This document shows positions 16,171 through 58,067 of a stretch of DNA of 64,000 nucleotides, piece by piece. The stretch is from Candidatus Poribacteria bacterium (GTDB taxonomy: Bacteria > Poribacteria > WGA-4E > PCPOR2b), in NCBI GenBank assembly GCA_965218095.1, contig OZ244587.1, positions 4,032,001 through 4,096,000 of the forward strand, written 5' to 3'. The notes below the pieces were generated by a model. The model had not been told where the DNA came from, searched no databases, and saw only the letters and a list, made by a program, of their open reading frames with translations. A program made the position numbers and the translations under genes. How positions within the stretch are numbered: the stretch's first letter is position 1; every line of letters begins with the position of its first letter.

Positions 16171-17040
16171 GTGCATTACCTAACACGCCAGATTGCTTTT
16201 GAAGCCTCACACCATTATCGTATTCTTGAACTCAGCGGTGAGGAGAATTACGCACTTTTTGGATCTCCTGCAAATCCAAACGGTCATGGGCATAACTATG
16301 TCCTTGAGGCAACGGTCAAAGGAAAAGTGAACCCCGAGAATGAGATGGTTATCAATATCACAGATCTGGACAAGGTTCTCAAAGAACAGGTTGTTGCCTA
16401 CTATGATCACAAGCATATCAACATACAGCACCCTACCTTTGTCAATAACCCACATTTGCAACCCACGAGCGAGAACTTAGTGATTCAGATCTGGTACGCG
16501 ATCGAGCCGCATCTGAAGGTTGAACGAAGTGAAATCCTCGATCGAAGATCGGGGAGGACAATCCTGCACTGTATCAGGCTGTATGAAGATTCAACCCTGT
16601 TTGCTGACTATTATGGAGAACGGCAAATGGTCTATCTCACGAAAGTGTACGAATTCAGCGCATCACATCGGTTGCACAGCCCACAACTCAGCAATGAGGA
16701 AAACCAGGAGATCTTCGGCAAGTGTAACAATTTTTACGGTCACGGACACAACTATATACTTGAGGTGACCATTAAGGGTGAGGTTGATCCAAGAACCGGG
16801 ATGATTGCTGATCTGAACTTTCTCGATGAAACGATTCAGAAGCAGGTCTATGGGCGATTCGATCACAAGCATCTTAACCTTGATACCCCTGAGTTTGAGC
16901 ACCTCAACCCGACTTCTGAGAATTTTGTCCGGGTGCTCTGGGATGTTATTGAACCGAGCCTCAAACCCATCAAGTTGCATCGCCTTCGATTGAAGGAGAC
17001 GTCTAAGAACTATTTTGATTACTACGGAGACGCAGTTTAG
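16171..17040 (+). CDS. Tandem-domain 6-pyruvoyl-tetrahydropterin synthase (PTPS-II type)
   Basis: Two T-fold units: FEASH...GSPANPNGHGHNY...PTSEN and FSASH...GKCNNFYGHGHNY...PTSEN. GTG start at 16171. Confidence 0.9.
   Translation: MHYLTRQIAFEASHHYRILELSGEENYALFGSPANPNGHGHNYVLEATVKGKVNPENEMVINITDLDKVLKEQVVAYYDHKHINIQHPTFVNNPHLQPTSENLVIQIWYAIEPHLKVERSEILDRRSGRTILHCIRLYEDSTLFADYYGERQMVYLTKVYEFSASHRLHSPQLSNEENQEIFGKCNNFYGHGHNYILEVTIKGEVDPRTGMIADLNFLDETIQKQVYGRFDHKHLNLDTPEFEHLNPTSENFVRVLWDVIEPSLKPIKLHRLRLKETSKNYFDYYGDAV
16517..16554 (+). repeat. Double-hairpin mini-repeat inserted in frame in PTPS
   Basis: AGGTTGAACGAAGTGAAATCCTCGATCGAAGATCGGGG; matches the intergenic copies at 17656 and 22045. 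Confidence 0.85.
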
Positions 17041-17043
17041 CCG

Positions 17044-17646
17044 ATGAAGATTTATACTGCCGAATCACTAGAGGATGAAACAATTACCGCCGATCCAAAA
17101 CTTGAATACATCTACGCTCAAATGCTGGAAAGTATCGGCGAGGATCCGACGCGGCAAGGCCTACTTAAAACGCCTCATCGTGCGGCGAAAGCCCTTCACT
17201 TCTTGACGCAAGGCTACCACCAAAATGTCGAGGCAATTTTGAACGGTGCAATCTTTGACGAGGAATACGATGAGATGGTCATCGTTAAGGATATCGAGTT
17301 TTATAGCCTCTGTGAGCATCATATTTTACCATTTTTTGGCAAGTGTCATGTTGGGTATATCCCCCACGAAAAAATCATTGGACTCAGTAAAATCCCGCGG
17401 ATTGTAGATATGTTTTCTCGCCGACTGCAAATTCAAGAAAAGCTGACCCGACAGATTGCGGAAGCGCTGCAAGAAGGACTAAATCCGCTTGGTGTCGCTG
17501 TAGTCATGGAAGCGCGGCACATGTGCATGATGGTTCGTGGTATACAAAAGCAGCACTCGAAAGCGACGACCAACGTGATGCTCGGCGCGTTTCGAGACAA
17601 AAGTTCAACTCGCGCGGAGTTCATGAGATGTATTCAGATCTCATAG
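17044..17646 (+). CDS. folE: GTP cyclohydrolase I
   Basis: [42 protein letters not shown]. Confidence 0.97.
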
Positions 17647-17655
17647 GTAGAGCCG

Positions 17656-17688
17656 CCCCGTTGCGGGGGATTTCGCTATGCTCAACTT
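17656..17688 (-). repeat. Double-hairpin mini-repeat, intergenic copy
   Basis: Reverse complement AAGTTGAGCATAGCGAAATCCCCCGCAACGGGG. Confidence 0.8.
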
Positions 17689-17695
17689 GAAGGGA

Positions 17696-18415
17696 ATGGA
17701 AACGCTGAAGGACAAAGTTGCAATTATTACAGGGGCATCACGCGGCGTTGGTCGAGCAACAACTCTAGCTTTTGCGCAGGCAGGTGCGAAGGTTGTCCTC
17801 GCATCACGCACACGGAAAGAGCTCGAAACGGTTGCAAATCTCATACGCACGAACAGTGGGGAAGCCCTCGTTGTGCCGACAGATGTGACACAGGAAGACG
17901 CGGTGGAAGCCCTGATTGAGCAAACTCTGGAGGCATATCAGCAAATCGATATTCTTGTGAACAACGCGGGAATCGGAATCTTCGAGATGGTAATCGATTC
18001 TGATTCGGAGACGTGGGATCAAGTAATTGACTCAAACCTCAAAAGCGTCTATCTTTGCTCAAGGTATGCACTGCGCTCCATGCTTACGCGTCAATCCGGT
18101 CAAATTATCAATGTGCTGTCGATTGCCGCGAAAATTCCGTTCAAAGCATCGAGCGCGTACTGTGCGGCAAAGGCGGGCGCCCTGGCATTTACGAAGGTTT
18201 TGTCGGAGGAGGTCAGGGATAAGAATATTCGGGTTACGGCTGTTTCCCCCGGATCGATCAAAACTTCATTCTGGGATGACATTGAGCAACACCCAGGTTT
18301 TGAACTGATGTTGAAACCAGAGCATGTTGCGGAAACGATCCTCTTCGCTACGACTCAGCCGGTTGGCATGGTCACTGAAGAAATCGTCGTCACCCCGCCA
18401 CTCGGAATTTTGTAG
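17696..18415 (+). CDS. SDR oxidoreductase, candidate sepiapterin reductase
   Basis: TGASRGVG, NNAG, YCAAK; third gene of the PTPS-folE operon. Confidence 0.75.
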   Translation: METLKDKVAIITGASRGVGRATTLAFAQAGAKVVLASRTRKELETVANLIRTNSGEALVVPTDVTQEDAVEALIEQTLEAYQQIDILVNNAGIGIFEMVIDSDSETWDQVIDSNLKSVYLCSRYALRSMLTRQSGQIINVLSIAAKIPFKASSAYCAAKAGALAFTKVLSEEVRDKNIRVTAVSPGSIKTSFWDDIEQHPGFELMLKPEHVAETILFATTQPVGMVTEEIVVTPPLGIL

Positions 18416-22044: not shown

Positions 22045-22082
22045 TCCCGATTCTTGGATCGGGATTTCGCTTCGCTCAACCT
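22045..22082 (-). repeat. Double-hairpin mini-repeat, intergenic copy
   Basis: Reverse complement AGGTTGAGCGAAGCGAAATCCCGATCCAAGAATCGGGA. Confidence 0.8.
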
Positions 22083-57101: not shown

Positions 57102-58067
57102 ATGAGCGAAAGAAAGTATATCATCGGCATTGATGGCGGTAGCACGAAAACAGTTGGACTTCTCGCAGATCTTGATCGAGTAATCCACGCGAAGGGCGAA
57201 TCAGGTCCCTCCAATTACCACGTCGTCGGAGAGGCGCAAACCAAAAGGGTACTGGCCGATCTGATCTTGCAGTTACTGGATGGGGCGAACACCACGCTAG
57301 AGAATTGCGCTGGTTTCTGCCTGGGGATGGCAGGGCTCGCACGCCCGGCGGATCAAGAAGTAATTGGGCAGATTTGCGATGAGATTGGTATCGGCAGAAG
57401 CCGTATTCTGACGCATGATGCACAGATTGCGTTGGTGGGTGGAGCTGGTAAGTTGACCGAAGGGAAATCCCACGTAGCGGGGCTAGAGGGAATCATCGTG
57501 ATTGCCGGGACAGGTTCAATTGTCTACGGGGTCAATGCCGAAGGCAGTGAAGCACGCGCTGGTGGTTGGGGGCACCTACTCGGCGATGAAGGCAGCGGCT
57601 ATGATATCGCGCTGCGTGGACTTCGAGCAGTTGCACGGGCAGCAGATGGACGTGGCATCCCCACACAACTGACCTATCTGATGCTAGACGAAATCGGGTT
57701 GAAACAACCAAGCGATCTCATACGCTGGGTCTACACTGCGAGCAAAGATCGGGTGGCCGGACTTGCACGGTGGGTTTTTATCGGCAGGGATGCCGGCGAT
57801 CGGGTCGCCCGACAGATTGTTGAATATGCTGCCGATGAGCTAACGCTCGCTGCCAAAGTTGTCATTGACCAATTGCGCTTCGATAATCAGTTTGATGTGG
57901 TTTTCAGCGGTGGAATTTTTGCGCATCAATCGGGATTTGTTGACCTGCTGCGGGCTCGCCTGCAAGCCGTTGCGCCAAAGGCGCAGATCGGTTTAGCCAA
58001 GCATGAGCCGGCTTATGGAGCAGTGTTGTTGGCAAAATCCATCCTGAAACAGAATGAAAACTGGTAA
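57102..58067 (+). CDS. BadF/BadG-family GlcNAc/MurNAc kinase (MurK-like)
   Basis: GIDGGSTKT, IAGTGS, GGWGHLLGDEGSG; adjacent to murQ. Confidence 0.9.
   Translation: MSERKYIIGIDGGSTKTVGLLADLDRVIHAKGESGPSNYHVVGEAQTKRVLADLILQLLDGANTTLENCAGFCLGMAGLARPADQEVIGQICDEIGIGRSRILTHDAQIALVGGAGKLTEGKSHVAGLEGIIVIAGTGSIVYGVNAEGSEARAGGWGHLLGDEGSGYDIALRGLRAVARAADGRGIPTQLTYLMLDEIGLKQPSDLIRWVYTASKDRVAGLARWVFIGRDAGDRVARQIVEYAADELTLAAKVVIDQLRFDNQFDVVFSGGIFAHQSGFVDLLRARLQAVAPKAQIGLAKHEPAYGAVLLAKSILKQNENW
57452..57482 (+). repeat. Double-hairpin mini-repeat inserted in frame in the kinase
   Basis: GTTGACCGAAGGGAAATCCCACGTAGCGGGG. Confidence 0.75.

Follow-up and report, generated by a model that had tools for sequence, protein, structure and literature searches.

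A very small palindromic DNA repeat inserted in frame into the 6-pyruvoyl-tetrahydropterin synthase gene and other conserved genes of a poribacterium

Why does one half of a tandemly duplicated enzyme carry 12 residues that the other half lacks? The enzyme in question is a two-domain 6-pyruvoyl-tetrahydropterin synthase (PTPS; Pfam PF01242, matched over two stretches with E=1.5e-57) of a member of Candidatus Poribacteria, whose genome (G000) is assembled as a single 6.35-Mb contig with 50% G+C. The gene occupies 16171..17040 on the plus strand, with a GTG start inferred from orthologues, of the 64,000-nucleotide stretch analyzed here (positions 4,032,001-4,096,000 of the contig), which is referred to below as the window. 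Domain 1 of the protein reads ..EPHLK-VERSEILDRRSG-RTILH, compared with ..EPSLK-PIKLH in domain 2, and the PTPS frame at 16519-16555 contains GTTGAACGAAGTGAAATCC and a CGATC-GAA-GATCG hairpin. The original prediction attributed the extra residues, which are present as it described them, to a minimal selfish repeat that enters housekeeping genes in frame and adds peptide loops to their products. As detailed below, we conclude with high confidence that the insert is an inserted, copied DNA repeat.

The same 12 residues in distant orthologues would speak against an insertion. PTPS orthologues were found by protein search in 40 of 41 related genomes, and a codon-by-codon alignment of the relatives for which loci were returned shows the 12 residues in none of them (0/29). 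In 28 of these 29 relatives the site is empty, with ..CTGAA(A/G) joined directly to GGGACA... If the ancestral sequence was CTG AAG GGG ACA, a synonymous variant of the sequence in the relatives, the filled allele is reproduced exactly by placing 36 nt, TTGAAC...ATCGGGGA, after CTGAAGG. The substitution-free boundary of the insert is 16520-16555 (TTGAAC...CGGGGA); its length is the one predicted, and its position lies one base to the right of the predicted 16519-16554. This plus-strand copy joins the core TTGAACGAAGTGAAATCC to the hairpin TCGATC-GAA-GATCGGGGA; its translation is (V)ERSEILDRRSG(R). In an AlphaFold2 model of PTPS built with 24 sequences (mean pLDDT, the per-residue confidence score, 90.3; predicted TM-score 0.86), the insert (residues 117-128) is placed between a helix at residues 100-115 and a strand at residues 131-140, and residues 118-127 form the sole stretch with pLDDT below 50. 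The insert is thus predicted to be a 12-residue disordered loop of domain 1, and mapping it on a structure, as the original prediction proposed, singles it out as the only low-confidence loop of the model. In the PTPS orthologue of the sister genome G001 (L011, G001:C2:103445-104302), this loop holds about 30 nt of unrelated inserted DNA, which encodes ..HSPPLSPPTWEGGRG.. and resembles another repeat family with polypyrimidine/polypurine hairpins (CCCCTCCCC..GGGGAGGGG), also found at locus L274. The loop has apparently received insertions more than once.

The PTPS insert is one member of a repeat family. Near-identical sequences had been claimed at four places in the window, and the pattern GTTGANCRWAGNGAAATCC matches at all four: 16519 and 57452 on the plus strand, and 17686 and 22080 on the minus strand. 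One hundred shuffles of the window contain 0.05 matches on average, and none of them reached four. Genome-wide, G000 has 14 strict matches, and the reversed pattern has none in any of the 41 genomes searched, so that the motif is far more frequent than in either the shuffled or the reversed controls. A profile built from near-consensus copies detects 44 copies in G000 (nhmmer, E<0.05), with the family consensus CA(A/G)G^TTGAGCGAAGCGAAATCC CG(ATCYAT or CGYAG)CGGGG, where the caret marks the point of insertion here and below; the sister genome has 67 to 70 strict copies. Besides the PTPS copy, the window contains two intergenic copies on the minus strand, of 30 nt (17656..17685; TTGAGCATAGCGAAATCC plus CCCGCAACGGGG) and 35 nt (22045..22079; TTGAGCGAAGCGAAATCC plus CGATCCAAGAATCGGGA), and a 30-nt plus-strand copy (57453..57482) within a gene for a BadF/BadG/BcrA/BcrD-type ATPase (Pfam PF01869, E=6e-41), where its second frame is used and gives the peptide (K)LTEGKSHVAG.

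Both hairpins proposed for the repeat are evident from comparison of the copies. In 38 aligned copies, the N/N' pair that closes the CGAAG mini-hairpin is GC in 26, AU in 7, CG in 1, GU in 1, and some other combination in 2. Double changes at this pair number 8, compared with 2.1 in shuffles, and none of 500 shuffles reaches the observed value, as expected from the predicted complementarity of N and N'. This first module comprises 2 + 3 standard pairs. The second hairpin has a perfect stem of at least 4 bp in 25 of the 44 G000 copies, compared with 174 of 1858 other GAAATCC sites; the perfect stems are 6 bp long in 12 copies, 5 bp in 11, 4 bp in 2, and 3 bp in 14, with none in the remaining 5. 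In G001, a 19-mer is identical in 57 copies, and the stems of the second hairpin vary in sequence (CGC/GCG, CGAT/ATCG, CGT/ACG) yet stay paired.

Pairs of filled and empty alleles define the ends of the inserted DNA at six sites. The empty sites read AAGG^GGACA in PTPS, CAAG^TT in the gene for the CCA-adding enzyme, TAA(A/G)^CG in Obg, AA(A/G)^CT in the BadF-type ATPase (57453..57482; the G001 orthologue is without exactly these 30 nt, GGCAAA^CTGGAT), CA(A/G)G^CA in GlnE, and TATG^CC in a gene that is filled in G001 and empty in G000. The insert is 36 nt long in PTPS and 30 nt long at the other five. In all six pairs the inserted DNA begins with TTGA and ends with GGGA or GGGG, and at none of the empty sites (0/6) is there a target duplication. 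The G of GTTG belongs to the target and lies outside the moved unit at these sites, which corrects the predicted unit beginning with GTTGA: the unit that moves starts with TTGA, and the G, together with the CA(A/G) that frequently precedes it, is target sequence. Indeed, the CA(A/G)G tetranucleotide is already present in the empty alleles of GlnE and the CCA-adding enzyme. Over 74 copies (25 of 44 in G000 and 21 of 30 in G001), 46 have CAAG (30 copies) or CAGG (16 copies) as the 4-mer to their left, compared with a genome background of 0.8%; GAAC/GTTC was not seen as a flank.

Some sites appear to have been hit more than once. The Obg site has a diverged insert at the same position in G005, and an antisense copy in the linker of one NtrC-type regulator is common to G000 and G001. 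For RecQ and the N6 methylase no close orthologue was aligned, which leaves these two sites without an empty-site boundary, and the site in the Lpd-like protein is a variable loop, with a possibly decayed look-alike in genus g4, where no clean boundary can be drawn. A separate observation concerns the gene for the CCA-adding enzyme, whose site is empty in most genomes of family f1: three f3 genomes (G029, G032, and G026; L131, L134, and L136) have a decayed 30-nt, 10-residue insert at the same position as in G000. These are either independent hits on a CAAGTT hot spot or remnants of an old insert that was lost many times.

How often does the repeat end up in coding sequence? Counting a copy as intragenic if 25 codons or more separate it from both ends of an open frame that is itself no shorter than 200 codons, we find 12 such copies among the 44 in G000, and all 12 frames match Pfam families; the remaining copies are intergenic or at gene ends. 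According to Pfam, the hosts are a histidine kinase, an Lpd-type flavoprotein, two NtrC-type regulators, RecQ, GlnE, PTPS, a BadF-type ATPase, a CCA-adding/poly(A) polymerase-type enzyme, a pseudopilin, an N6 DNA methylase, and Obg. With these 12 Pfam-confirmed hosts and the absence of the PTPS residues from all 29 orthologues, the central claim of the original prediction, in-frame entry of a minimal repeat into housekeeping enzymes, holds. Several of the inserts fall between domains, as judged from Pfam coordinates and copy positions, and the proteins with inserted loops presumably still work. In G001, an open-reading-frame (ORF) search that did not use Pfam placed 10 of 30 examined copies in long open frames, so that the intragenic share is about a quarter to a third in both genomes.

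Of the four stop-free readings of the repeat, nine of the 12 G000 copies use (Q)VERSEIPxxG, two use (K)LxExKSxxxG, and one is read from the opposite strand (9:2:1:0); the corresponding figures in G001 are 7:2:1:0. Outside genes, such a bias is not seen: with crude ORF-based gene calls, copies between co-directional genes are split 9 sense to 11 antisense, and those just downstream of stop codons are split 4 to 5 by orientation. The lack of orientation bias between genes indicates that the bias within genes is a survival filter rather than an insertion bias. A simple putative cause is the antisense reading, a GC hairpin followed by TTTCGCTT, which resembles a terminator and would thereby skew the frames that persist in genes.

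The family is not confined to this lineage, in which the original prediction had placed it. Matches to an 18-mer are found in 28 of 176 genomes of the phylum, with 22 of 28 genomes in family f1 and 6 of 147 in other families, and reversed controls give none; a chromosome named Candidatus Poribacteria (locus L167) also carries the repeat. Per genome, the counts in family f1 run from at least 67 (G001) and 15 (G000) down to 0 in several members. A scan across phyla, covering 596 Gb of species genomes, gave at least 118 stretches, with 125 matches listed. About 139 chance matches are expected by our arithmetic, so the cross-phylum count alone proves nothing. Among the 125 matches listed, the core is directly followed by a perfect hairpin of at least 4 bp in 56 and of at least 5 bp in 45, compared with 9% and 2.5% in the control. 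The core with the second hairpin is found, among the matches listed, in Ignavibacteria, Bacteroidota, Desulfobacterales, Zixibacteria, a Peribacteria genome, and others. Long open frames hold 19 of the 125 matches listed, several of them without a second hairpin or in high-GC DNA, and we draw no claim from these. In some contigs, assigned to Lentimicrobiaceae, Sphingobacteriaceae, and Alkalitalea, copies of the unit follow one another head to tail, repeating every 38 or 49 nt (L159, 2652-2783; L204, 5383-5449; L211); the poribacterial copies are dispersed.

What kind of process would generate such copies? In the reading that we prefer, at a probability of roughly 0.6, a mobile DNA repeat of very small size, itself non-autonomous, gave rise to the PTPS insert as one of its copies. 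Its moved unit is 30 nt long, or 36 nt where the second stem is longer, and consists of a 5' module, TTGA-N-CGAAG-N'-GAAAT, whose mini-hairpin has a GNA triloop closed by the covarying pair, and a second hairpin, (T)CCCG-loop-CGGG(A/G), with a stem that differs in sequence between copies and keeps its pairing. The unit integrates directly 3' of a G, mostly 3' of a pre-existing CA(A/G)G, without target duplication, and would be cut and pasted as single-stranded DNA by a tyrosine transposase of the HUH type acting in trans; either a RAYT/IS200-like Y1 enzyme or an IS91-like one is a candidate. Insertion is not limited to intergenic DNA, and a copy would survive within a gene only if its length is a multiple of three, its frame is free of stops, and its peptide falls in a tolerant loop or linker. 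Most survivors are read in the sense frame, with (Q)VERSEIPxxG, which is hydrophilic, as the resulting peptide. Exact ends, a preferred tetranucleotide on one side, and the lack of duplication, combined with small hairpins at both ends, constitute a signature of HUH single-strand transposition; because no mobilizing enzyme was found, we infer the enzyme class from this signature and give it roughly even odds.

The search for that enzyme covered 34 Y1_Tnp loci, scanned for the core over about 1.5 kb on each side: the four Y1_Tnp genes of G000 and 30 loci from G001, G013, G014, G015, and G018. In two poribacterial genomes the unit follows ..ACAAG in the loop of a GTAG-tagged repeat, in one case (G014) about 370 nt from a Y1_Tnp gene. 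ORF clustering over 148 element-bearing loci revealed no candidate partner gene, the largest cluster being present in 14 loci, and the intervals of 0.9-1.2 kb that separate paired copies in G001 and G013 (L346 left out) contain no convincing gene. A ..YIRNQEQHH motif in the best Y1_Tnp gene of G000 (L001, G000:C1:4366294-4369635) recalls subclass 1.2 of Quentin 2018, a group that has received little study; this gene has repeats of its own around it, GCTCC-GTA-GGAGC then ..ATG, and adjoins an IS-like ORF pair.

A number of results weigh against this reading. None of the 34 Y1_Tnp loci has the repeat on both sides; a core-like match is found at three of them, on one side only, and one of these has 3 mismatches. 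All four Y1 genes of G000 are flanked by other hairpins (GCTCC-GTA-GGAGC, GGTGGGGC-CAT-GCCCCACC, AGAAACCGAGTTTT..), and G001, which has the most numerous and most uniform copies, has none beside its 5 Y1 loci. The IS91-type models PF04986 and NF033538 have no match in G000, G001, G013, G014, G015, or G018, but they match no control genome either. The orientation of the copies is unbiased with respect to local GC skew or the gene-strand majority (Fisher p 0.12 to 1), and the GC skew of G000 is too noisy to place the origin. The folding energies of single DNA copies are no better than those of shuffles (z -1.7 to +1.1; one copy incomplete), although z-scores of such very short sequences are uninformative, and the GC and AT versions of the closing pair may reflect a split into two or three subfamilies and not a large number of compensatory changes that arose separately. 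Mobility itself is deduced from comparisons between species; contigs of two DNA runs (X4 and X5) break off at 16380, start again at 16582-16618 and, as they do not span the insert, carry no information on polymorphism. Finally, contigs of two metatranscriptome libraries from one study span the PTPS insert with 0 and 1 differences and no joint, a weak argument against its removal at the RNA level, as these are assembled contigs in which rare forms would be hidden and the libraries may contain DNA.

An alternative is that the repeat is an ordinary repetitive extragenic palindrome (REP) in the strict sense, whose REPtron, with one cognate REP-associated tyrosine transposase (RAYT), was missed in these genomes or lost from them. 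Like REPs and the REPINs formed from them, the repeat is a short (20-40 nt) palindrome dispersed in tens of copies, mostly intergenic (44 in G000, 12 of them deep in genes), and some of its copies are in frame in known genes, where they are tolerated in loops. Its 18-nt core is identical to the tip of the GTAG-tagged REPs and REPINs at locus L262, a REPtron in which GTAG-CCCGGA-TTGAGCGGAGCGAAATCCGGGA repeats, along with inverted doublets of them, flank a RAYT-like gene. The form GT(A/G)G-stem-core accounts for 21 of the 125 cross-phylum matches listed, with titled records mostly from Alphaproteobacteria, and on a Bacteroidales contig (L225) about 250 nt separate a core-plus-hairpin copy from a Y1 homologue. 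Moreover, REPtrons can vanish by deletion, according to excerpts of Di Nocera 2013 (PMC3733652). However, as defined in the excerpted text of Quentin 2018 (PMC6006769), a REP has GT(A/G)G within 0-2 nt of the foot of a hairpin with a stem of 7-20 paired nt and a loop of 2-5 nt, and RAYTs cut REPs by reading the hairpin and the 5' tetranucleotide. In the present family the tetranucleotide is GTTG (T5 invariant and T6 and G7 at least 90% conserved in alignment A1, with GTGG in 1 of 38 copies and GTAG in none), and its G stays outside the moved unit at the six empty sites. Instead of one long stem, there are two short tandem hairpins, with stems of 3-6 bp in G000; no REPtron was found, as the element flanks none of the four G000 and five G001 Y1_Tnp loci; between a quarter and a third of the copies are intragenic; and both the DNA that moves and the place where it enters, 3' of CA(A/G)G with no duplication, could be defined. 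We therefore regard a REP in the strict sense as rather unlikely.

Quite improbable, in our estimate, is a functional cis-element (a terminator or attenuator, an mRNA stabilizer, or a protein-binding site) that is kept between genes, with the intragenic copies as accidental by-products. The opposite strand of the repeat does read as a GC hairpin followed by the terminator-like tail, and 22045-22064 (+), within the 35-nt intergenic copy, is the top-ranked site of a terminator-like scan; by our gene calls, five intergenic copies lie in terminator orientation no more than about 50 nt after a stop codon. The predominance of G-T (12) over A-C (4) at the covarying pair is what RNA pairing predicts, and such roles are stated for published REPs in the available parts of PMC3733652 and PMC6006769. 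A cis-element, however, would be expected to have a preferred orientation, which the 9:11 and 4:5 splits do not show, and neither the high intragenic share nor the exact 30-nt insertions at a preferred tetranucleotide would be explained. Searches of Rfam 15 gave no match in the window at gathering thresholds, nothing relevant in 16400-17800 at E<=10, and, around the copies, three chance-level matches (E 1.4-6.4). Even less likely is spread through an RNA intermediate or through host repair or template switching, with no transposase involved. Elhai and colleagues reportedly proposed, in 2008, a similar transposase-free spread for the small dispersed repeats of cyanobacteria. Such a route would fit the failure to link any transposase to the element, the G-U-compatible variation at the covarying pair, and the recombination of modules with other hairpin families, as in the fusion of the core to a GCTTGCATC-hairpin, but exact ends and a preferred 4-nt target are typical of site-specific nucleases, and copies outside genes are unbiased relative to transcription. 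Selection of the peptide (Q)VERSEIPxxG itself, as a docking or modification site for which the DNA repeat is just the vehicle, might be suggested by the skewed frame use in both genomes; it is scarcely credible given that the majority of copies are intergenic, that the peptide is predicted by AlphaFold2 to be disordered, that the host proteins are mutually unrelated, and that the terminator-like antisense hairpin is a simpler cause of the skew.

The repeat has points in common with several known systems. Like the Rickettsia palindromic elements (RPEs), it is a selfish palindromic repeat that inserts in frame into housekeeping genes and adds a surface peptide, with 12 Pfam-matching hosts and 30- or 36-nt inserts that are missing from orthologues at six clean sites. 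By description, however, it belongs to a different sequence family, and its host has a large genome and is free-standing, not a reduced intracellular one. RPE-1 elements are 100-150 bp long. The original prediction that RPEs are longer than the present repeat is true only of RPE-1, as RPE-4 and RPE-6 of Rickettsia conorii are short and are CGTC REPs, according to the parts of Di Nocera 2013 (PMC3733652) available to us. In excerpts of a paper on the IS91 family (PMC13181058), insertion is described beside 5'-CTTG or 5'-GTTC, without duplication, by elements with subterminal palindromes at both ends. The present repeat likewise has subterminal palindromes and makes no duplication, and CTTG is the complement of the CAAG to its left; it differs in that its unit is 30 nt long, compared with sufficient IS91 ends of 82 and 89 bp, and that its second commonest target is CCTG, whereas IS91 targets keep T at position 2 (same excerpts). 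Hairpin ends that would act as single strands, and the presence of Y1_Tnp genes in G000, recall IS200/IS605 elements and their miniature derivatives, the palindrome-associated transposable elements (PATEs), which are much larger; for the repeat no strand bias was detected, and its ends were found beside no Y1 gene. IS608 and ISDra2 insert 3' of a fixed tetra- or pentanucleotide without duplication, another likeness to the repeat. The cyanobacterial small dispersed repeats, likened here by description only, are said to be mobile 21-27-nt sequences with hairpin potential that are nested in other elements (the 2008 work of Elhai and colleagues) and are probably the nearest analogue in size.

The neighborhood of the PTPS gene contains a further copy and some complications for annotation. 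PTPS is adjoined by folE, a GTP cyclohydrolase I-like ORF (17044..17646, plus strand; taken from the ORF list and named from its sequence) with a ..TRAEFMRCI.. end that is conserved in relatives. The minus-strand copy at 17656..17685 lies between the folE stop (17646) and the start of an SDR gene (about 17696). In relatives, this spacer is about 28 nt long and unrelated, and it already ends with ..CAAGTTG on the minus strand. The SDR gene starts with ATGCTGAAGGACAAA in relatives; this ATG is ACG in G000 (window 17653-17700), and the start has probably been taken over by the ATG at 17696, two codons upstream. Another ATG, at 17678 within the repeat copy, yields a misleading longer ORF. In G007, G018, and G015 (L012, L013, and L014) the same spacer contains 90-130 nt of other hairpin repeats, such as the GTAG-type GGTGCGGTTTGCAACCGCACC, and the folE-SDR junction is a general sink for small repeats.

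The family is also only one of many in this genome. The hairpin CCGAT(C/T)(C/T)AT(C/T)GG (CCGATCYATCGG) occurs 160 times in G000, in many conserved flank contexts (e.g., C1:4269390, 2420277, and 127766, and including window copies): CAGAGCCTGCC-hairpin, GCTTGCATC-hairpin, TTGCTTTGAATC-hairpin, GTGCTCGT-hairpin-CAACTGAAC, and CTGTAGTTGC-hairpin-CGTC. The genome thus houses modular hairpin repeats of many families, which seem to trade modules with one another. At locus L050 of G001, a second hairpin element (GTGCTCGT-CCGATCCTATCGG-ACA) is nested in the loop of the second hairpin of one copy, which shows that this loop can accept cargo.

The phenomenon as such is of a known kind. The text of Di Nocera 2013 (PMC3733652), as far as it is available, reports REPs inside genes in several species, including intragenic GTAG and CGTC REPs, and that of Quentin 2018 (PMC6006769) reports in-frame REPs within tnpA-REP genes. 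The original prediction, which knew of no description, is thus superseded as regards short in-frame palindromic repeats, which have already been published, and stands as regards the sequence: no paper was found that prints the core, and its substrings matched one unrelated paper (PMC12735256). What is new, relative to the text of Di Nocera 2013, whose supplementary lists of intragenic REPs might include a related family, is the architecture, with two short tandem hairpins, no GTAG tag, a 30-nt unit, and a CTTG-type target, as well as the lack of an adjoining transposase gene, the core common to several phyla, and the high intragenic share. A bolder claim, which we consider unlikely, would be that no smaller site-specific transposable element has so far been defined: a 30-nt unit made up solely of a mini-hairpin that is "origin-like" and a hairpin that is "terminus-like" would be placed 3' of CA(A/G)G, with no duplication, by an unrecognized HUH enzyme that is neither a flanking RAYT nor a classical IS91 transposase, with a near-invariant 18-nt core spread over many phyla and, in some lineages, rewriting protein surfaces with a (Q)VERSEIPxxG loop.

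The six filled/empty pairs define a minimal mobile unit of bacteria with unusual clarity, including its ends, its target, and the absence of duplication. Essential enzymes and regulators, namely Obg, the CCA-adding enzyme, RecQ, GlnE, PTPS, and two NtrC-type proteins, are decorated rather than destroyed by it. The combination of a CTTG-type target, a core that equals a canonical REP tip, and no neighboring transposase makes the question of who moves REP-like repeats directly testable. For the annotation of Poribacteria, the findings carry a warning: "lineage-specific loops" of 10-12 residues in their proteins can be repeat insertions rather than adaptations, and the same probably applies to proteins of several other phyla.

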